From the IMG/VR virus record IMGVR_UViG_3300040758_000220: a DNA stretch of 20,000 bases. The stretch is one strand, 5' to 3'. The translations under genes were made by a program, and so were the position numbers. Below the pieces are notes generated by a model that had not been told where the DNA came from, did not search any database, and worked only from the letters and a program-made list of their open reading frames with translations. The stretch comes from an uncultured virus (IMG/VR IMGVR_UViG_3300040758_000220) (lineage: Duplodnaviria > Heunggongvirae > Uroviricota > Caudoviricetes). Of this stretch, positions 1,771-20,000 are shown one piece after another (the stretch's first letter is position 1; the number at the start of each line of letters is the position of its first letter).

Positions 1771-1782
1771 ATGGCTGGATTG
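1771..1782 (+). pseudogene. 5' fragment (MAGL) of a phage gene split by transposon 1
   Basis: AAGGAG RBS at 1758-1763, ATG 1771. Removing the transposon and one duplication copy joins ATG GCT GGA TTG in frame to CCC GAC ATG... at 7251. Confidence 0.8.
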
Positions 1783-1807
1783 CGGTATTATGTAGCAACG
1801 GGCACCA
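1783..1807 (+). repeat. Left terminal inverted repeat of transposon 1
   Basis: 25/25 match to the reverse complement of 7218-7242; preceded by target duplication copy CTGGATTG. Confidence 0.96.
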
Positions 1808-2761: not shown

Positions 2762-3004
2762 CTAAAGGTCCGCCAGCGCCAGCACCGTGATTCCAAGCAC
2801 GGTCAGGCAGGCCAGGAAGAACGTCACGGAGAAGGTTCCGCGCGCCAGTTTGGCCGTAACCGATCCCTCCGTCTCCCCCTCGAATCCGTGCTCCCGGAGC
2901 CGGCGGGCAAGCTCGGCATAGGTCACGTCTGCCCGCTTTAGCTCGGCCTTGAGCAACCGACGCGCCTTGTCGGCCCACTCCTTCTCTTTGGTTGCAAGCC
3001 CCAT
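2762..3004 (-). CDS. DUF6471-like HTH regulator divergent from the transposase
   Basis: W...LLKAELKRADVTYAELARRL...ETEGSVTAKLARGTFS..FFL.CL pattern; GAGGT RBS; such genes are often seen beside IS1595 transposases. Confidence 0.85.
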   Translation of the reverse strand: MGLATKEKEWADKARRLLKAELKRADVTYAELARRLREHGFEGETEGSVTAKLARGTFSVTFFLACLTVLGITVLALADL

Positions 3005-3113: not shown

Positions 3114-4100
3114 ATGTCCCAACACTTCCTCCTCTCCGCCGCCGCTCGCACCCTCTCCCTGGGCGCCGTGCTTCGCATGACCCCCGAGGAAGCCGAGGCG
3201 GCTTTCCGGTCGATCCGCTGGCATGACACAGATGGCAAGCCGGTGTGCCCGCACTGCGGCTGCCCCACGGTATGGGACTGCCGCAAAGCCAATGGCGCCC
3301 CGCGCTGGCGTTGCAAGGCGTGCCGCAAGTGCTTCTCGGTCACGTCCGGGACGCTGTTCGCGTTCCACAAGCTGCCCATCCGCGATTACCTCGCGGCCAT
3401 CGCCATCTTTTGCAACGAGGTGAAGGGCAAATCGGCCCTGGCGCTGTCCCGCGATCTGGGGACACAGTACAAGACCGCTTTCGTCCTAGCGCACAAGCTG
3501 CGCGAGGCGATGGCGTCGGAACTCAAGGGCCTGATGGTGGGCGGACCCGGCAAGGTCGTGGAAACTGACGGCGGCTATTTTGGCGGCTACGTAAAGCCGG
3601 CCAACTACAAGGAGAACCGCCGCGACCGCAGGCTGGCGCAGAACCAGAACGGCAAACGCCAGGTCGTGGTGGTGGTCCGGGAGCGGGATGGGCGCACCCT
3701 GCCGGCCGTGTTCAAGTCCGAGGGCGCCGCGCTGGGGTTCATAACGTCCCGCGTTGCCAAGGGCACCGAGCTTGTGGCCGACGAAGCCGCGTCGTGGAAT
3801 GACCTACAGGCCCGGTTCGCCATGCAGCGGATCGACCACGGGCAAGCGTACTCGGATCGCGGCGTCTACTCGAATGGCGCCGAAGAGTTCTTCTCCCGGA
3901 TGCGCCGGGGCGAGATCGGGCACCACCACCACGTCGCCGGGCCGTATCTGATCCGCTACGCGCAAGAGGCGTCCTGGCGCGAGGATCACCGGCGGGTGGA
4001 CAACGGCCGGCAGGTCCAGGGCGTGATGGGGCTGGCGATGGCTTGCCGGCCGAGCGTGGACTGGTGTGGGTACTGGCAGAGGGCGCAGAAGGCGGCGTAG
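3114..4100 (+). CDS. tnp: IS1595-family DDE transposase
   Basis: N-terminal zinc ribbon CPHC...CKAC, SVTSGTLF, HTH region, catalytic VETDGGYFGG / ADE / NGAEEFFS motifs. Confidence 0.96.
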   Translation: MSQHFLLSAAARTLSLGAVLRMTPEEAEAAFRSIRWHDTDGKPVCPHCGCPTVWDCRKANGAPRWRCKACRKCFSVTSGTLFAFHKLPIRDYLAAIAIFCNEVKGKSALALSRDLGTQYKTAFVLAHKLREAMASELKGLMVGGPGKVVETDGGYFGGYVKPANYKENRRDRRLAQNQNGKRQVVVVVRERDGRTLPAVFKSEGAALGFITSRVAKGTELVADEAASWNDLQARFAMQRIDHGQAYSDRGVYSNGAEEFFSRMRRGEIGHHHHVAGPYLIRYAQEASWREDHRRVDNGRQVQGVMGLAMACRPSVDWCGYWQRAQKAA

Positions 4101-4106
4101 CGCCAC

Positions 4107-4592
4107 TCAGGCCGCTTCCGAGTATTCCTTCACTGGGCCGGGCTGATTGTCCACTAGCGCATCAAATTCCGCGTCTCTCCGTTTCCGAAGCATTTCGGTG
4201 GCCCACCGCATCAGACTGGTGGATGGCGCCCCACGCTTGCGCATCATCTCCAGTTGGGGGGGCACATAAAGGAGTGACTGAGTATGGCGCTCGGCAAGTC
4301 GTCCAAGCGCTTCGCCGCGCCCGGTGTTGGCCCAGGCCCACTCGAAATCGTCCTTGAGGAATTCAAACGGCGTTGCTAATCTGTCCCGCAGGACGCGCCC
4401 CACGAGCCCAGCCTCTTGCTCCTTGAGACGGACGCGGGCGATCAGTCCCAAAACGCGTACAGGACCGTATGTCATCTCGGCGATGACGCCGAGAGGGATG
4501 ATGTGGCCGGCTTCCCGTTGCAGATCGCAATGGTACACGATGCGCGACAGGGTGAGGCGACCCGGCCGGATCGCTACCACGTTGTCGGTCAT
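4107..4592 (-). CDS. Kinase-associated protein (possibly remote DUF3037-like)
   Basis: ATG 4592 with AAGGAG RBS overlapping the kinase stop; beta-rich N-terminus RIVYHCDL...IPLGVIAE and SLLYVPP, reminiscent of partners of HipA-like kinases. Confidence 0.7.
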   Translation of the reverse strand: MTDNVVAIRPGRLTLSRIVYHCDLQREAGHIIPLGVIAEMTYGPVRVLGLIARVRLKEQEAGLVGRVLRDRLATPFEFLKDDFEWAWANTGRGEALGRLAERHTQSLLYVPPQLEMMRKRGAPSTSLMRWATEMLRKRRDAEFDALVDNQPGPVKEYSEAA

Positions 4593-4605
4593 CAAACGCA
4601 CTCCT

Positions 4606-5406
4606 TCAGACGCCCAACACGGCCCGAAGGCCGGTCCTTCGGGCCAGCAGGTTACCTAGTATGTTCGCTCGGAATGGCTGTGGCAAGTAGAACATAGGGA
4701 GTCGGTTCACCAGCCTGGCAATCTCCCCTTCGGGGAGAGCGCATATCCGATCGGCTGTTTCGGCCATCACGTCGGCGTGATCCGCTCCCGGCAGCCCAGG
4801 TCCCAGGAGCGCGACCGGGCTGGTTGGCCCTTTCCAGCTATAGGACATGGAGTGGCCATGATCGTAAAAACCGGTCTGACCTTCCTCGTCAGGGCTGTCT
4901 AAGTTGAAATTGACGTGATCGAGCTTCCGGTCGCCATCGCCGATCCAAGTGTGGAACACCCGCATGGCGGAAAATGTCGGCAGGGCGCCAGACGCCTGCT
5001 GCCCCGAGATAAGGTTCCGCTTGGCAGCCTCATTCCATTTCATCGACTGATGAAAGGCCCAGGCGGATATTGATCGCCCCAGCTTGTATTGTCCTGGCGC
5101 AGATGCGCCCCAAAGGACAACAGGACAGACCGGGAGAGCGAGTAGATAGGCCAAATCGAACGCCAGTTTCTCGTGGGCCGCTCGACAATGTCCGGTCTCG
5201 CCGCCCTTGTTTGGCCCCGGCTTAGCGACGCCGCGCACCCCGCTAATCTTGTTAACGACATTGATGGATTGGGATTCCCCTTCCGGGAGAGCCGCCCCCT
5301 CTCTCCACTCATCAGGTGATGTCTCAATCGTCGCAAACCACTCATCTCGGAAGGACCGTTGAACTACCGAAAATCGTACTGCGGCCGCTGTGCGCCGACC
5401 ACTCAT
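4606..5406 (-). CDS. HipA-like / PI3-4K-fold Ser/Thr kinase
   Basis: VAKP (ATP-binding Lys), AHEKLAFDLAYLLALPV (helix-C Glu), FHTWIGDGDRK (catalytic loop), FYDHGHS (Mg-binding); GGAG RBS. Confidence 0.85.
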   Translation of the reverse strand: MSGRRTAAAVRFSVVQRSFRDEWFATIETSPDEWREGAALPEGESQSINVVNKISGVRGVAKPGPNKGGETGHCRAAHEKLAFDLAYLLALPVCPVVLWGASAPGQYKLGRSISAWAFHQSMKWNEAAKRNLISGQQASGALPTFSAMRVFHTWIGDGDRKLDHVNFNLDSPDEEGQTGFYDHGHSMSYSWKGPTSPVALLGPGLPGADHADVMAETADRICALPEGEIARLVNRLPMFYLPQPFRANILGNLLARRTGLRAVLGV

Positions 5407-5576
5407 GGCAATTCACTCCAATAAAGTGCCCCACGGTGGCATCCCCGGATGTGACAGAAGATAGGTCCCACGCGAGGCACTTCGTCAACTAGATATGGGC
5501 GCGTCTTGCCCTGGTTACCCCCAAGATACGCGATTGTGGCCGACTCGGCACAATCGGACGAGTCGGTCGCCTGATT

Positions 5577-6347
5577 TTAGGCAGCGCCGTCGGACGGGAG
5601 CAGAGAAGCGGCTAGGCGGCTGCGAGCAAGGCCCGCTTCTGCCCTATCGAGGTCGCGTCCGATTTTCGACCGGCACTGAGCCAGAAGGCGCCCGTCAACG
5701 CTTGACGGTAGGCCCCGCCCCATCTCCCACATATCATGAACGGCCGCGACATCGGACGGGGTTAGTCTGGGGGCAAACTGAGAGACGACATCGTCTATGG
5801 CGACTTGGACATCCGTGGCCTGTTTCGTCGTCCCGTCGATCTCGCCCTCCGTGATTTCTGATGTCGAGTAGATGCCCTTCTTGGTGGGAACCGCAAACAA
5901 CATGCCCTTCTGCACCATTCGATAAAGCTTTGATGTCAACTGGTTACGCTTGTGTATTTCCTTAGTGGCCTTGTACAACCCGATCAATATCCTATCCAGC
6001 GATAGGATGCCCCCCGCCTCATTGATCAGATTGAGAATGGCGAACTCAAGCTTGTCGGCGTTCGACACGCTCAGCTCAGCCAACAGTTCCTCGGGAAGGT
6101 CTGCGACGTCCTCCGGTGTCAGTGTCAGCCGCTGGGCCAACCCAGGGCGAACGGCGGCGTGGCCGGCCGTTGCGGCGTCTAGCTCCCTTTGTGCGGCCAC
6201 CAAGCTATCCGCGAGGTTAGCGAATTGACTTGCTGACTGAATATGACGATCATGACGCCACGGCTCCCCCGCATAGCGGTGGGCTAACTTCTCGTGAACT
6301 CCCTGTTGTTCCTTGACAAAAGGGAGATAGCTAACTAGATTGCTCAA
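5577..6347 (-). CDS. Winged-helix-like DNA/RNA-binding passenger protein
   Basis: TTG start at 6347, 7 nt after AGGAG; LTPEDVADLPEELL...GGILSLDRILIGLY...KLYRMVQKGMLFAVPTKKGIYS resembles a winged HTH. The longer ORF-track start runs through the tRNA and is rejected. Confidence 0.8.
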   Translation of the reverse strand: MSNLVSYLPFVKEQQGVHEKLAHRYAGEPWRHDRHIQSASQFANLADSLVAAQRELDAATAGHAAVRPGLAQRLTLTPEDVADLPEELLAELSVSNADKLEFAILNLINEAGGILSLDRILIGLYKATKEIHKRNQLTSKLYRMVQKGMLFAVPTKKGIYSTSEITEGEIDGTTKQATDVQVAIDDVVSQFAPRLTPSDVAAVHDMWEMGRGLPSSVDGRLLAQCRSKIGRDLDRAEAGLARSRLAASLLPSDGAA

Positions 6348-6367
6348 GCTCAGTCTCCTAGATTGAG

Positions 6368-6461
6368 TGGCGGAAGGGGCGGGATTCGAACCCGCGGTAC
6401 CCCGGCTAGGGGGTACGAGGTGTTGGTAGCACCCCGGCATAGGCCGCTCGCCCACCCTTCC
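6368..6461 (-). tRNA. Class II tRNA with serine-type body and ACC (Gly) anticodon
   Basis: Cloverleaf: acceptor GGAAGGG/CCCTTCC, G73, encoded CCA; D arm GGC-GAGCGGCCTAT-GCC; anticodon arm GGGTG-CTACCAA-CACCT; 7-bp variable stem GTACCCC/GGGGTAC; T arm GCGGG-TTCGAAT-CCCGC. Confidence 0.93.
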
Positions 6462-6537
6462 ACGATGCACCGGCACCATTGCCGGCATGTCTTCGTCTTC
6501 TTCCTCTGCAGAACCACACACACTTCCGTATCAATAT

Positions 6538-6615
6538 CGCGAAGGGGCTTGTGCCGTAGCGGTGCAGGCCCCTTCCGCGTTACGAATTATAGGCGAAGAC
6601 GAACCGAATTGTAAG
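6538..6615 (-). promoter_or_regulatory. Putative sigma70 promoter and leader hairpin for the tRNA operon
   Basis: TATAAT on minus strand at 6586-6591, weak -35 (TTACAA) 17 nt upstream; GC-rich inverted repeat 6538-6579 at the predicted 5' end of the transcript. Confidence 0.55.
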
Positions 6616-6756
6616 TAGAGGCGAGCCGGCTCGTGGCCGGCGCGTGAGTAACGCGAATTTGTTCGCATTCCGTCCCATGACGCGCGACTAGATTGGTTTG
6701 AGTCGCAATTATGCGACGCGCCGAAAATGGGAGCGGGGCGTCCGCGAAATGGCGCC

Positions 6757-7173
6757 CTACACCAGCGCGCGCCGCGTCGCCTTCCCCATCCCCACCGTCC
6801 GCGCCATGCCCCGGGCCTGGAGCTTGCCGAACGTCTCCCGGAGCTTGGTCCGCGTCCGCTTCATGGTGTGCCGATCCGGGAACCGGACACCCTTCGCCCG
6901 GAGCGCGCCCAGCGCCATGTCCCGAATCGCCAGCGGCTTCTCGGCCTCGCGGAGCATGTCGATCGCCAGCCGGCGTAGCTCGCCCCGCTTGAAGATCGGG
7001 TTGGGCTTGTGGAACCGGGGCGGCAGCTTGAGGTCGGGGGCGATGGCCTGGATGCGGGCTTCTAGGTCCGCTAGCTTGTCGCGGTAGCCCTGAGCGAGCG
7101 TCTCGGCTTGCTTCAAGGCAAAGTGGCAGCGGGTCCGGGCGCGGCGGAGCTTGGTTAGGTCTGTGTCTTTCAC
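6757..7173 (-). CDS. Basic coiled-coil plus winged-helix-like passenger protein
   Basis: 138-aa ORF; FKRGELRRLAIDMLREAEKPL motif recalls small proteins seen near ends of alphaproteobacterial IS1595 elements. Confidence 0.75.
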   Translation of the reverse strand: MKDTDLTKLRRARTRCHFALKQAETLAQGYRDKLADLEARIQAIAPDLKLPPRFHKPNPIFKRGELRRLAIDMLREAEKPLAIRDMALGALRAKGVRFPDRHTMKRTRTKLRETFGKLQARGMARTVGMGKATRRALV

Positions 7174-7217
7174 GCCGGATATGCTAGAGAATCAGCGGCT
7201 TGGAGGCTTTGGCCTTG

Positions 7218-7242
7218 TGGTGCCCGTTGCTACATAATACCG
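7218..7242 (-). repeat. Right terminal inverted repeat of transposon 1
   Basis: Reverse complement of 1783-1807; followed by CTGGATTG. Confidence 0.96.
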
Positions 7243-7520
7243 CTGGATTGCCCGACATGGACCTGTTCTCCTACGCCCCACCCACCTCCCCGACCCCACG
7301 CGAGGAACCCTCCGCCGCCCTGTTCCCGGATGCCACGCCGCCAGAGCAGGTGCGGTGCTCCGGTGATTGCGTCTGGATCGAGTTTGGGCTGGCAACGGCT
7401 GAGAGCGGGTGCGAGATGTGCCGGGCGATTGATCTGGCGTCGGGGGTGTACGTGCCGTTTGCGGTTACGGTGCGGGAGGTGTTTGGGGAGGCGGTTGACG
7501 ACGCGGCTATGTCGGGCTAA
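7243..7520 (+). pseudogene. 3' part of the transposon-split phage gene (Cys-containing small protein)
   Basis: Continues frame MAGL|PDMDLFSY...CSGDC...CEMC...; an internal ATG at 7257 could restart translation. Confidence 0.7.
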
Positions 7521-7553
7521 TGTTGTGGGAACGCCGCCATAAGGGGTCCGCCC

Positions 7554-7772
7554 ATGCCTTCCGATCAATTCCGCGTGAGTGTTTACCTACCCCGGGATGC
7601 GGAAGCGGTGGTCCGCAGCATTGCAGCGCGGCGCGGGATAGGTGTCAATGCCGTGTTCCGGCTGGCGCTTGGTGTTCTCCAGGCCCATGAGGATGCGCGG
7701 GAAGCTGGGCAGTATGTCGGCACGACGCGGGTGCGGGAGCATTTGGAACAAGTGATCGTGGCACCGCTCTGA
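7554..7772 (+). CDS. Ribbon-helix-helix-like small DNA-binding protein
   Basis: FRVSVYLP strand followed by two helices (AEAVVRSIAARRGIGVNAVFRLAL); AAGGGG RBS. Confidence 0.7.
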   Translation: MPSDQFRVSVYLPRDAEAVVRSIAARRGIGVNAVFRLALGVLQAHEDAREAGQYVGTTRVREHLEQVIVAPL

Positions 7773-7791
7773 CGCCTCACTCGGCAGTGCC

Positions 7792-8337
7792 GTGATCCCC
7801 CCAATCGAGACTCGGTATAATGGCTATCGGTTCCGCTCGCGGACCGAGGCGCGCTGGGCTGTGTTTTTCGATGCCGCTGGCATCCAATACGAATATGAAA
7901 AGGAGGGTTACGCTCTTCCGTCAGGGTGGTATCTTCCTGATTTCTGGCTACCCGATTTCAAGTTGTGGTTTGAGGTGAAGGGGCAGCGGCCGACGCCGGT
8001 TGAGGCTCGGCTCTTGTCCGAACTGGTCTTCGCGAGCGGGCACACAGGGCTTCTCGCTACGGGTGCGCCTCAGCCCGTCGCCCAGATTCTCCATTTCATT
8101 CCCCCGCGCCCGGGCGACTTCGATGGCTGGGACGCTGGGACGCAGTGGTATCTGTGTGATGACAGGCGAGACGACGGCCAGTTTTGGTTAATGAACGACG
8201 ATTGCGGCGCCTTCCACATCGGCCCTGACGATTGCCACACCAACTCGACGCCCGACCACCGGAAATACCCGGCCGTTCACTCAGCAACCGCCCGCAGCTA
8301 TAGAGCCGCCCGGTCTGCGCGTTTCGAGCGCCACTGA
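7792..8337 (+). CDS. Phage PD-(D/E)xK-like nuclease
   Basis: IETRYNGYRFRSRTEARWAVFFD...YEYE...YLPDFWLP...FEVKG motif set. Confidence 0.85.
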   Translation: MIPPIETRYNGYRFRSRTEARWAVFFDAAGIQYEYEKEGYALPSGWYLPDFWLPDFKLWFEVKGQRPTPVEARLLSELVFASGHTGLLATGAPQPVAQILHFIPPRPGDFDGWDAGTQWYLCDDRRDDGQFWLMNDDCGAFHIGPDDCHTNSTPDHRKYPAVHSATARSYRAARSARFERH

Positions 8338-9170
8338 TGGCGATCCCAGACGAGATCGAGCGCGTTGCGTTGCTCGGGTGGCACATCTACCCACAATCGA
8401 ACTATGGGCGCAGCGCGTGTTTCGAGGGTGCTCACTCGGCGGCGACGGCCGATCTTGATGTGATCGCCAACTGGTGCCGAGCTTATCCGAATTGCAACTG
8501 GCGCGTCGTCTGTGGTCCCTCGCGTATTTGGGGTTTGGACCTCGATGTGCCCCCTTTGCATTTACATGACGGCGTATCTAACTTCGCCAAGTTGGCAGCC
8601 GAGCGTGGGGGTCTGCCGGCGAGGCCGGCAATGCGCTCGGGTGGGGGTGGCCTAGCCATCTTCTTCGCGCACAGCGGCGAGCCGATCCGCGGTAAGGCCG
8701 GTGTCCCGGTTCCCGGTTCCGACCCTCGGCGCGGCCAGCAAACCCAAACGATCCCACCATCCCGCCACCATTCGACCGGCAAACCCTATAGGTGGATCGC
8801 CGCGCCTTGGGACACTTCGCCACCCCCGGCGCCGGGGTGGTTGTTGGAATTGGTCAAGCCCCCGCCCGAGCCGGAAGCCAAGGCCCCGGCGCGGCTAGCG
8901 AGCGGCGACCAAGCCCGGAACTATGCCGTTGCGGCATTACATCACGCAGTTCGGCGGGTGGGCGCGGCCGGCAAGGGTGGCCGCAACGACACTCTAAACC
9001 GCGAAACCTTTTCTTTGGCCCGGTTTGTCCTCGCCGGCGCGTTGTCCGAAGCGGAAGTCCGGGACGCCCTCTTTGCCGCCGCACATGCGAACGGTATGAC
9101 CGGCGATGACGGTGCCCGCGCCGCGCTGATGACGATTGAGAGCGGGTTGAAATCCCGGCGGCCGGCATGA
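8337..9170 (+). CDS. Bifunctional DNA primase/polymerase (prim-pol) with C-terminal helical domain
   Basis: GWHIYP, AATADLDVIANW, LDLD catalytic motif, SGGGG, IPPSRH...YRW, C-terminal GGRNDTLN. Confidence 0.9.
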   Translation: MAIPDEIERVALLGWHIYPQSNYGRSACFEGAHSAATADLDVIANWCRAYPNCNWRVVCGPSRIWGLDLDVPPLHLHDGVSNFAKLAAERGGLPARPAMRSGGGGLAIFFAHSGEPIRGKAGVPVPGSDPRRGQQTQTIPPSRHHSTGKPYRWIAAPWDTSPPPAPGWLLELVKPPPEPEAKAPARLASGDQARNYAVAALHHAVRRVGAAGKGGRNDTLNRETFSLARFVLAGALSEAEVRDALFAAAHANGMTGDDGARAALMTIESGLKSRRPA

Positions 9171-10648: not shown

Positions 10649-10761
10649 GTGACGCTGTGACGGATAATGACGGGTTCCCCTATTATGACGTGTTCGCGCA
10701 CACGCGCACGCGCGATACACGTCATAATAGCGATATGCGTCATAAAGCGTCACAGCGTCAC
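10649..10761. repeat. Nested inverted repeat with TGACG units, putative replication origin
   Basis: GTGACGCTGTGACG (10649-10662) pairs with CGTCACAGCGTCAC (10748-10761); CTATTATGACGTGT (10680-10693) pairs with ACACGTCATAATAG (10717-10730); starts 18 nt after the helicase stop. Confidence 0.8.
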
Positions 10762-17589: not shown

Positions 17590-17933
17590 CCCATCAACTC
17601 CCCCGGCGCTTCGCCGGGCCGCACCCCACCCCGAACAACAACCAAAGCCCGGTCAACCAGTTCCGACACCTGCGCCTCCTTCATCTTCAAAAACGCCGGC
17701 ACATGCGCCAAATCGGCCACGATAATCAACACCGGAAACGCATCCTGGCCCGGTGAAATGTCATCTCCGTCGATCTCATAGCTGCCGCTTTCCTCGATCG
17801 GGACCATCAGCGGCGCTTGGCCGCGCACCAGCATAACAAAGCGGCAGCCGTCCGGCAGGACCGCATGCGCAACCTGCTTTTCGCGTTCGATGACATAGAC
17901 ATTTGCGCGGTGTAGTTTGTTGGGCAGGGTCAT
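17586..17933 (-). CDS. Hypothetical protein
   Basis: 115 aa, AGGAGAAGG RBS, stop overlaps the SLOG start. Confidence 0.7.
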   Translation of the reverse strand: MTLPNKLHRANVYVIEREKQVAHAVLPDGCRFVMLVRGQAPLMVPIEESGSYEIDGDDISPGQDAFPVLIIVADLAHVPAFLKMKEAQVSELVDRALVVVRGGVRPGEAPGELMG

Positions 17934-17965
17934 CGCACCTTCTCCTGAAGGCGATTATCCGGGAC

Positions 17966-17994
17966 TTGACGAATGGCTCCGGACGTGCCATATT
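17966..17994 (+). promoter_or_regulatory. Putative transposase promoter with -35 inside IRL
   Basis: TTGACG, 17-nt spacer, CATATT. Confidence 0.55.
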
Positions 17995-18007
17995 CCTGTC
18001 GTCAGGC

Positions 18008-18928
18008 ATGAAGGCACCCCCGATGGGCCAGATCAAGTTCACCAAGCAGATGACCGTCCCCGAGTTCGATGCTCTGTTCCCGGACGATGATGCCTGCAAG
18101 GCTTACCTCCGGGATCGCCGGTGGCCCGATGGCGCCATCAAGTGCCCGCGCTGCGGATCGGCTGAGCGGGTGTTCGCCCTCAAGACGATGCCCTTCAAGT
18201 GGGAATGCATGGCGTGCGGCAAGAGTACATCCTACCGCTTCTCCGTCACTGCTGGTACCGTATTCGAGAACACCAACGTCCACATGCTGGCGTGGTTCAA
18301 GGTCATCTATCTCATGCTGACCAGCAAGAAAGGCATGAGCGCCCTGCAAATCCATCGGATGATGGGTTTCGGCTCCTACTCGACCGCGCATTACATGTGC
18401 CATCGCGTCCGGGCCGCGCTGATCGATCCTGACTTCCGCAAGTTGATGGGGATCGTAGAAGTTGATGAAACTTACGTTGGCGGAAAGAACAAGAACCGTC
18501 ATCGGGACAAGCGCACCCCCGGCACCGGCGGGTCCGGCAAGGAAATCGTGATCGGCGCCGTCGAGCGGCAGGGGTCGGTTGTCGCGCGCGTGCTGCGCGA
18601 GGCCAACATGCAGACGATGGGCCATTTCGTCCGTGCGGCTGTATCCGACAAGGTCAGTCTGGTCGCTACCGATGAACACAGCGGATACCTCGGACTGGCA
18701 CCCGACTACATCCACGAGTCGGTGCGCCACGGCCAGGGCGAATATGTGCGCGGGGTGGTTCATACTCAGACCATTGACAGCTTCTGGTCCCTCTTGAAGC
18801 GCGGCATCATGGGTAGCTTCCACCATGTCAGCGCCAAGTACCTGCCGTTCTATGTGGCCGAATTTGAGTGGCGTTACAACAACCGGAAGAACCCCGACAT
18901 CTTCGGGGAGGCCGTAGGAAGATGCTGA
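18008..18928 (+). CDS. tnp: IS1595-family (ISXO2-like domain) transposase
   Basis: CPRC...CMAC zinc ribbon, FSVTAGTVFE, VEVDETYVGG, TDE, HTQTIDSFWSLLKRG, EFEWRYN; start could be 18008 or 18023. Confidence 0.96.
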   Translation: MKAPPMGQIKFTKQMTVPEFDALFPDDDACKAYLRDRRWPDGAIKCPRCGSAERVFALKTMPFKWECMACGKSTSYRFSVTAGTVFENTNVHMLAWFKVIYLMLTSKKGMSALQIHRMMGFGSYSTAHYMCHRVRAALIDPDFRKLMGIVEVDETYVGGKNKNRHRDKRTPGTGGSGKEIVIGAVERQGSVVARVLREANMQTMGHFVRAAVSDKVSLVATDEHSGYLGLAPDYIHESVRHGQGEYVRGVVHTQTIDSFWSLLKRGIMGSFHHVSAKYLPFYVAEFEWRYNNRKNPDIFGEAVGRC

Positions 18929-19893: not shown

Positions 19894-20000
19894 CGCGCCG
19901 GCCTGTCGAGAAAGGGACTTGCACCCCCCGCGGCTATTCGTCAAGTTCCGCATATTCGCCGTCTGATGATCCGGAACACTTCGTCGACATCCATAGGGCC

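Follow-up and report, generated by a model that had tools for sequence, protein, structure and literature searches.

The stretch of DNA analysed here (the window, 20,000 nucleotides of the uncultured virus IMG/VR IMGVR_UViG_3300040758_000220) holds a single tRNA gene according to ARAGORN, a class II gene of 94 nt at 6368..6461 on the minus strand. The gene is located within an IS1595-type transposon, directly ahead of ORF256, which is predicted to encode a winged-helix protein, and it combines the body of a serine tRNA with the anticodon ACC (6426-6428 on the plus strand); the label given by ARAGORN is 'tRNA-Gly (acc)'. Natural tRNAs in which body and anticodon are discordant provide the material from which changes of the genetic code and deliberate mistranslation arise, and the known bacterial cases are the odd-shaped allo-tRNAs and the tRNA-Pro variants of Streptomyces. 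New here are the coupling of a tRNA to a gene of the ORF256 family and a second serine-type tRNA, with the anticodon UAG, in the same layout.

Fold, identity marks and distribution of the tRNA

The tRNA model RF00005 of Rfam scored 43.8 bits (gathering score 29, E 3.5e-8) when a 451-nt region was searched, and it was the best model of the tRNA clan there. In a search of the whole window at gathering thresholds the tRNA was unlisted, which is taken as a filter miss. The acceptor stem comprises 7 bp (GGAAGGG/CCCUUCC), opens with G1-C72, G2-C71 and A3-U70 and is followed by G73 and an encoded CCA; U8 is present. The D stem has 3 bp, the anticodon stem 5 bp with the loop CU-ACC-AA, the variable stem 7 bp with a 6-nt loop, and the T stem 5 bp with the loop UUCGAAU. 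The acceptor, anticodon, variable and T arms were recovered in the minimum free energy fold (z = -2.36 relative to shuffled sequences). The sequence-only reading of this DNA had described the cloverleaf as fully paired; all stems are intact, while one pair of the anticodon stem is a G.U pair.

According to the part of PMC9976931 used here, most bacterial tRNA-Ser share the conserved pairs G1-C72 and G2-C71, G73 acts as an antideterminant against the leucyl- and tyrosyl-tRNA synthetases (LeuRS and TyrRS), and bacterial tRNA-Gly is marked by U73, G1-C72, C2-G71, C35 and C36. Under these identity rules the window tRNA displays every tRNA-Ser mark that was checked (long paired variable arm, G73, G1-C72 and G2-C71) with the exception of the anticodon, which is ACC and neither NGA nor GCU. 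The combination of a serine-type body with an ACC anticodon, already proposed from the letters, is thus borne out by ARAGORN, Rfam, the reading of the stems and the tRNA-Ser relatives described below, and ACC, said to be at least two substitutions from the serine anticodons, is two to three away from any of them. A disguised glycine tRNA can also be envisaged, which glycyl-tRNA synthetase (GlyRS) would charge through C35 and C36, both given as glycine identity elements in the same source, and which would supplement GGU decoding for the mobile element. C35 and C36 are indeed present; however, a long variable arm takes the place of the short class I loop, position 73 is G and not U, and the second acceptor pair is G2-C71 and not C2-G71. 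Moreover, all sequence relatives are tRNA-Ser, and a sister tRNA joins this body to a leucine anticodon, so that glycine charging appears very improbable. An identity as tRNA-Sec or allo-tRNA was ruled out by the 7/5 fold, tRNA-Sec being characterized by a 13-bp acceptor/T branch of 8/5 and the anticodon UCA.

The same sequence was observed in other assemblies. One metagenome contig (L029) is 99.99% identical to the window over 12,069 bases with an identical tRNA, and another (L017) is 99.94% identical over 6,829 bases; in the latter, a single U-to-A change breaks one pair of the variable stem and the anticodon is unchanged. The stretch 4100-7250 was present (at least 0.74 of the sampled words) in 19 metagenomic DNA runs of 2014-2025 from peat, wetland and soil, 10 of which are flagged as a possible source of the window DNA, and contigs from runs of 2014 (X1), 2020 (X9) and 2025 (X19) cover the tRNA without any difference. 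Because ACC is unchanged in L017, in L029 and in the contigs of these three years, a sequencing error in the anticodon, named earlier as a point to be checked, is excluded. The view that the gene is an assembly error, or a pseudogene copy of a host tRNA-Ser that is decaying or simply carried along, is largely refuted and has barely any probability left. The broken pair in L017 would fit decay, as would the failure to find a divergent homologue with the same anticodon. Against this stand the identical copies in L029 and the contigs of the three years, the intact stems, 15 compensatory changes relative to the second tRNA described below, and the finding that no tRNA-Ser in the searched genomes exceeds 69% identity, hence that there is no recent copy. 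The earlier argument against simple decay is therefore strengthened.

The relatives of the tRNA were sought by BLAST in 401 alphaproteobacterial genomes, one of which (G242) is unpublished. Matches were obtained in 252 of them, the aligned part being the 3' portion only, from nt 44-66 (mostly 60-66) to nt 94. Among 39 matching loci examined, 37 are tRNAs according to ARAGORN, and the class II genes among these are tRNA-Ser in 36 of 36 cases, none being Leu or Tyr. The best global identity is 69%, to tRNA-Ser of the GCU and CGA types, the D and anticodon arms being aligned without gaps, and the first three acceptor pairs GGA/UCC occur in all but one of the 36 genes. The window tRNA resembles the canonical alphaproteobacterial tRNA-Ser (GCU, CGA, GGA, UGA) in length (94 nt as compared with 88-93 nt), in the GGA.../...UCC-G-CCA end, in the layout of the D arm, in the variable stem of GUAC...GUAC type and, for some of them, in an identical T arm. 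It differs in the ACC anticodon, in an unrelated anticodon stem, in an overall identity of at most 69% and in its location on a transposon rather than at a chromosomal tRNA locus. In plasmids, no match was found for the whole window or for the region 5400-7800, and the tRNA gave only a 33-nt T-arm/acceptor match, to tRNA-Ser(UGA) of Acetobacter.

Tallies of class II tRNAs with ACC agree with the expected rarity of ACC tRNAs in bacteria. The exact 24-mer spanning the anticodon and variable region had 0 matches in the genome_contigs collection, and a restrictive class-II/ACC pattern gave no bacterial tRNA there; its 6 loci included two tRNAs, both in archaeal metagenome-assembled genomes (MAGs). 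A general class-II/ACC pattern yielded 31 loci in the metagenome scan, with a tRNA only in L017 and L029, that is, in the window's own element, and 0 loci in the viral scan. Two by-products of these scans can be described. The archaeal tRNAs (L003:3990-4073 and L005:3990-4073, on MAG contigs of Aenigmatarchaeota and Promethearchaeota) are 84 nt long and called Gly(acc) by ARAGORN; their extra arm is class-II-like, the acceptor stem is poorly paired at its outer end, and they are unrelated in sequence to the window tRNA. In the part of PMC11066159 used here, archaea are reported to lack A34 tRNA genes. Furthermore, about 22 of the 31 pattern loci, from two metagenome samples, represent a tRNA-derived repeat of ~70 nt that is not called by ARAGORN (GTGGCCGAGTGGTTAGCG...TTACCAAT...GGTTCAAATCC; contigs L010-L014, L021, L022, L024-L028, L030, L031 and L033-L038), which looks like a SINE-type (short interspersed nuclear element) family of some eukaryote.

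The tRNA and ORF256 as a proposed unit and its second occurrence

ORF256 occupies 5577..6347 on the minus strand and starts with TTG at 6347-6345, the ribosome-binding site AGGAG (6359-6355) being located 7 nt upstream, and the distance from the CCA end of the tRNA to this start is 20 nt. The reading frame had appeared to overlap the tRNA, but its true start is this TTG, and the corresponding N-terminus is shared by 26/26 aligned homologues. The protein had no match in Pfam, NCBIfam or PADLOC and no clear match in PHROG. Its AlphaFold2 (AF2) model, with a mean pLDDT of 84, consists of a long helical hairpin followed by a domain of three helices and two strands; matches of this domain in the PDB are weak (E 0.01-0.07), yet they are consistently winged-helix domains. 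Named language-model neighbours are of helix-turn-helix (HTH) type with scores of 0.83-0.85, which are leads only. The family profile collects 968 cluster representatives at E <=0.001 and 627 at <=1e-10. In a search, lacking a positive control genome, of 401 genomes of the order of G002 the profile found no member, and a plasmid tblastn gave one partial Zymomonas match with no tRNA context. A C-terminal extension of ~70 aa (5577-5786) is present in none of the 26 aligned homologues and may represent the loss of a stop codon, a fusion or a real extra domain.

Upstream of the tRNA, on the same strand, a sigma-70-like promoter is predicted at 6586..6615 from its consensus match only (CTTACA-18 nt-TATAAT, 10/12 matches); it lies ~125 nt from the 5' end of the tRNA, and 4 such sites were counted as compared with 0.7 expected in shuffled sequences. 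It is directly followed by an imperfect palindrome or leader hairpin at 6541..6575 on the minus strand (GAAGGGGCC...GCCCCTTC), a candidate operator or RNA structure. A second leader hairpin, GCCGGCAATGGTGCCGG (6464..6490, minus strand), adjoins the tRNA on its 5' side. Between the tRNA and ORF256 no clear intrinsic terminator was found.

When the viral collection was scanned with the alignment of the ORF256 family, two loci were obtained, L082 and L083. The record of the L082 provirus starts exactly at the gene start and was left out of upstream counts. L083 is a virus-classified, prophage-like contig of 31 kb, in which the ORF256 homologue (3776-4357) is preceded at a distance of 22 nt by a class II tRNA of 95 nt (3659-3753). 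This tRNA has the acceptor stem GGAGAGA/UCUCUCC, G73, CCA, a 7-bp variable stem and the anticodon loop A-U-U-A-G-A-C, the anticodon being UAG, a leucine anticodon. Its full-length BLAST matches in 5 alphaproteobacterial genomes are only tRNA-Ser(GCU) and tRNA-Ser(GGA), the others being T-arm matches to class I tRNAs; the tRNA-Sec model gave 34 bits (gathering score 47). The hairpin that precedes the tRNA and the spacer that follows it can be aligned between the window and L083, and a similar palindrome, AAGGAGCC...CTCCTTC, occupies the same place after the promoter region. The L083 unit is flanked by phage genes, those for the portal and the large terminase, and lies on the opposite strand to them. 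A scan of viral contigs with a motif for the junction gave 11 loci, of which one is L083 and 10 are chance matches without a tRNA, and a viral scan with the single protein P0096 as query gave none.

The two tRNAs were compared stem by stem. Of their 26 stem pairs, 11 are identical, 15 have changed on both sides, none has changed on one side and none is broken. Ten of the compensatory changes fall in the anticodon and variable stems, and U33 and A37 are kept. Acceptor pairs 1-3 (GGA/UCC) are constant, whereas pairs 4, 5 and 7 have changed. The 15 compensatory changes with no broken pair are strong evidence that selection has acted on the cloverleaf itself from the time when the lineages of the window and L083 separated.

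Codon usage, decoding and competing readings

The two partner genes differ from expectation at the codons that correspond to the two anticodons. In ORF256, GGT accounts for 0/17 Gly codons, as compared with 25/120 codons that end in T over its other four-fold boxes (p 0.019). In the L083 homologue, CTA and CTG together account for 2/13 CTN codons, as compared with 36/72 A/G-ending codons in the other boxes (p 0.011). Among the eight boxes, the cognate one shows the strongest depletion in either gene, and the combined p for both genes is about 0.002. Because a UAG tRNA precedes the homologous gene, 15 of 26 pairs have changed together and the codon depletion is matched, a role in decoding gains indirect support.

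The decoding capacity of ACC can be estimated from work in E. coli. In the part of PMC11066159 used here, an orthogonal tRNA whose ACC stood in the same loop, CU-ACC-AA, carried no inosine modification, and its codon reassignment reached 1.3% at GGU, 0.40% at GGC and 0.33% at GGG, with GGA below detection. By analogy, the window tRNA, if charged with serine, would cause low-level substitution of Gly by Ser, mostly at GGU. Editing of ACC to a serine anticodon found no support, the ACC tRNA of that study not being inosine-modified.

The favoured reading, to which a probability of about 0.45 is given, is that the window tRNA is a serine-charged missense tRNA forming one unit with a winged-helix regulator. 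The order of this unit would be promoter, palindromic leader, tRNA, a 20-nt spacer with the ribosome-binding site and the winged-helix gene. Transcription would proceed from 6615-6586, and the tRNA would be released by RNase P and 3' processing. Subsequently, the seryl-tRNA synthetase (SerRS) of the host would charge it, since this enzyme recognizes the long variable arm together with G73 and the first pairs of the acceptor stem and ignores the anticodon. The unmodified ACC would then read GGU, and weakly GGC and GGG, causing low-level Gly-to-Ser substitution. The winged-helix protein, whose own gene contains no GGU, may control the unit by binding the palindrome or the tRNA itself. The whole would represent a regulated miscoding or 'toxic tRNA' cassette of transposons and prophages, with a target codon that can change, the anticodon being ACC here and UAG in the relative. 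A stronger version, in which a mobile and programmable cassette uses a tRNA-Ser with a swappable anticodon to mistranslate one codon while the winged-helix protein restrains it and its own gene is purged of that codon, is possible but rather doubtful.

Several results weigh against the missense reading. The tests of codon depletion are post hoc and the genes small. Other genes speak against a strong effect over the whole element: the kinase gene within the transposon keeps 4 GGT codons, and over the genes of the transposon GGT represents 8/118 Gly codons, as compared with 28/185 outside (p 0.03). The 4 kinase sites fall on columns without a conserved Gly, but are too few to count for or against recoding. 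ACC is a poor decoder, with the 1.3% at GGU in E. coli reported in the part of PMC11066159 used here, the winged-helix matches of ORF256 are weak (E 0.01-0.07), and the L083 gene is of foreign composition (GC3 0.49, as compared with 0.82-0.84 in its neighbours). Moreover, the PrimPol gene of the carrier, outside the transposon, has 12 GGT codons, a use that would suit the glycine reading set out above; the complete lack of GGT in adjoining ORF256 would not. It can also be observed, as a matter of codon usage alone, that these 12 are found among the 29 Gly codons of the PrimPol gene (8337-9170), as compared with 36/303 over all 15 genes, which is odd for a replicon carrying a tRNA capable of misreading GGU.

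The distribution of the tRNA within the family of ORF256 has to be counted on the same side. When the viral collection was searched with a degenerate motif, 19 loci were obtained, L082 and L083 included, and 19/19 encode family members (hmmsearch E 1e-69 to 4e-16). Apart from L083, ARAGORN found no upstream tRNA at these loci, and Rfam at E up to 1 found none in 10 of them. Among 11 distinct family loci with readable upstream DNA, only 2, the window and L083, have a tRNA; the other nine are L112, L113, L120, L121, the near-identical L122 group, L123, L124, L125 and L130. In three loci inspected (L130, L120 and the L122 group), GC-rich hairpin leaders occupy the place of the window tRNA. The tRNA thus belongs to one sub-lineage of a family in which structured leaders are general, and therefore a second reading stays alive, in which a tRNA-shaped leader or processing element determines where the ORF256 mRNA begins, how stable it is or how it is translated, through RNase P and 3' processing while the anticodon drifts. 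The end of the tRNA lies 20-22 nt before the start codon in both cases, and the anticodons ACC and UAG are unrelated. The acceptor/T arm and the 3' RCCA are the features used by bacterial RNase P, and recognition by this enzyme alone could explain the kept CCA and position 73, a further point against the missense reading. In the wetland metatranscriptome X20, a run that cannot show absence, no exact contig covers the tRNA, and only 33-35-nt T-arm pieces with 2-3 differences, from tRNA-Ser of other organisms, were found. The leader reading, however, leaves unexplained the codon depletion in both partner genes, the 10 compensatory changes in the anticodon and variable stems with U33 and A37 kept, and the constancy of the GGA/UCC pairs while pairs 4, 5 and 7 change. 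It is a serious alternative and the main rival of the missense reading, although the less likely of the two.

Two minor features of the tRNA-less loci may be added. About 300 nt upstream of the gene, a conserved leader with two hairpins is present in L130, L120 and L122 and may act as a regulatory RNA or an operator; in it, L130 and L120 share ...CAGGGACGTTTAAC...GGCCAGCCCTG... In L123, a weak match to the mascRNA/menRNA model (1682-1749; 27 bits, E 0.18) lies directly downstream of the family gene and is perhaps due to chance.

Among known systems, the allo-tRNAs of Mukai et al. (2017) are the closest in concept. As far as the part of PMC5389517 used here describes them, these Ser-like tRNAs have anticodons that correspond to 35 codons; the metagenomes they come from are of soil, sediment and peat, and toxin-antitoxin genes or transposon-related open reading frames often lie close by. 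Those with leucine anticodons inserted serine in E. coli and were toxic, and some are charged, yet unused in translation. The window tRNA is in a comparable context, with G73, a long variable arm, the anticodon ACC and an IS1595 transposon that carries a HipA-like kinase gene. The resemblance in concept combined with a normal fold, as suggested earlier, is confirmed by the 7-bp acceptor stem, the 5-bp T stem and the non-serine anticodon. The allo-tRNAs, in contrast, have an 8/4 or 9/3 acceptor/T arrangement with a tRNA-Sec-like D arm, as compared with the 7/5 arrangement and tRNA-Ser D arm here. The text of their supplementary table used here lists the Gly anticodon GCC and no ACC anticodon (12/12 occurrences of 'ACC' are in the codon column), and the same part of PMC5389517 reports no conserved winged-helix partner gene.

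In Streptomyces, tRNAProA is a mistranslating variant of tRNA-Pro, and such variants come with a dedicated synthetase. The part of PMC10404621 used here describes a tRNAProX family in which body identity and anticodon likewise disagree and regulated mistranslation is proposed; the family differs in its proline identity and class I fold, and is not reported there on insertion sequence (IS) elements. In the Ser-tRNA(CAG) of CUG-clade yeasts and in human tRNA-Ser variants (PMC6041473 and PMC12993449, each in part), a serylated tRNA also places serine at a foreign codon, but these cases are eukaryotic and chromosomal and lie one point mutation from a Ser/Leu anticodon lineage. Searches of the literature outside subscription journals found no report of a bacterial 7/5 tRNA-Ser with a Gly or Leu anticodon, nor of a tRNA as IS1595 cargo. 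As regards the layout, the tufB operon of E. coli also has tRNA genes immediately in front of a protein gene; one transcript is made there and RNase P releases the tRNAs. Co-transcribed tRNAs of this type are ordinary isoacceptors with cognate anticodons.

If the missense reading is true, miscoding tRNAs can spread horizontally as self-contained units and need no unusual fold, and annotation labels such as 'tRNA-Gly' or 'tRNA-Leu' would hide them. The protein family of ~1,000 clusters could then provide a search handle for more of them. Under the stronger version, that of the programmable cassette, many of the family members could mark hidden missense tRNAs or effectors resembling tRNAs on other transposons and prophages, and the cassette would serve addiction, phage defence or stress-induced diversification of the proteome. 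With its size of ~1 kb, the cassette is also a natural scaffold for codon reassignment work.

The transposon, its cargo and the carrier element

The transposon is delimited by perfect terminal inverted repeats of 26 bp at 1782..1807 (left) and 7218..7243 (right, 100% complementary to the left), which gives an element of 5,462 bp (5.46 kb). The left repeat is preceded by (GC)TGGATT at 1774-1781, and the right repeat is followed by TGGATT at 7244-7249. The flanking direct repeat is thus TGGATT, with 6 bp unambiguous, or GCTGGATT (8 bp) if the right repeat is 2 nt shorter; the usual target-site duplication of the IS1595 family is 8 bp. The transposase (3114..4100, plus strand) matches Pfam DDE_Tnp_IS1595 with E 6e-34 and has an N-terminal zinc ribbon (E 4.3e-7). 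With the tRNA between perfect repeats that enclose an IS1595-type transposase and a direct repeat outside them, the earlier description of the gene as transposon-borne is upheld. The closest transposases, 62-64% identical, are from plasmids of Skermanella and Rhodovastum, where the IS copies are ~1.7 kb long and their end 16-mers equal the first 16 nt of the window repeat at 15/16 positions. These relatives are simple elements with no tRNA, and by sequence the window element is their cargo-carrying relative. The possibility that the tRNA is an integration-site remnant was ruled out, as it is complete and inside the transposon with no integrase adjoining; the L083 tRNA, for its part, sits between portal and terminase genes.

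On the minus strand, ORF256 is followed after 170 nt by ORF266 (4606..5406), a predicted HipA/CtkA-like kinase gene. Its product has no Pfam match of its own; however, it has 78 homologues, 6/24 aligned members match PF20613 (HipA_2), and its AF2 model, with pLDDT 91, gave Foldseek matches to CtkA, phosphatidylinositol 4-kinases (PI4K), HipT and HipA. No ORF266 homologue was found in the 401 alphaproteobacterial genomes, a search without a positive control genome, nor in plasmids by tblastn. HipA-family kinases target aminoacyl-tRNA synthetases, and the kinase gene, so close and on the same strand, favours a role of the tRNA off the ribosome, in which it would be charged or bound by SerRS or another protein and serve as a decoy, sensor or cofactor; the winged-helix protein, the HipA-like kinase and a tRNA-targeting toxin are the partners envisaged. 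The frequent location of allo-tRNA genes near toxin-antitoxin systems, and the charged but untranslated examples among them (PMC5389517, in part), point in the same direction. Yet this role predicts no codon depletion in the partner gene, and no kinase homologue is present in the records of L083 or the L082 provirus; judged by sequence, the kinase is not a constant partner of the ORF256 family. An off-ribosome role is accordingly considered unlikely.

The remaining cargo comprises three small genes on the minus strand. DUF6471, a small helix-turn-helix-like protein (Pfam E 2.7e-23), is encoded in the left-hand part at 2762..3004. ORF164 (4107..4601), with an unassigned product, begins 5 nt after the end of the kinase gene. 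ORF138 (6757..7173) encodes a small basic protein with no family match and lies upstream of the tRNA promoter. In X20, exact 151-nt contigs were found at 4161-4311, 4854-5004 and 5082-5232, within ORF164 and the kinase gene; these are consistent with transcription of the cargo but no proof of it, since DNA carry-over is possible.

Outside the transposon, genes for a resolvase, PrimPol, a D5-type helicase, ArdC, ParB and a second, distant IS1595 transposase are present, a gene content that suggests a plasmid-like or integrative mobile backbone as the carrier. The host is probably an alphaproteobacterium, to judge solely from the relatives of the transposase and the tRNA. Immediately after the helicase gene, a 45-nt inverted repeat at 10649-10761, 82% complementary and rich in short repeats of GTGACG/TGACG type, may be the replication origin or iteron region of the carrier. 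The second IS1595-family transposase (17903-18928) shares only 29% identity with the first. Of a pair of 36-nt inverted repeats with 81% complementarity (17947-17982 and 19928-19963), one arm lies in the start of this transposase gene and the other 1.9 kb beyond.

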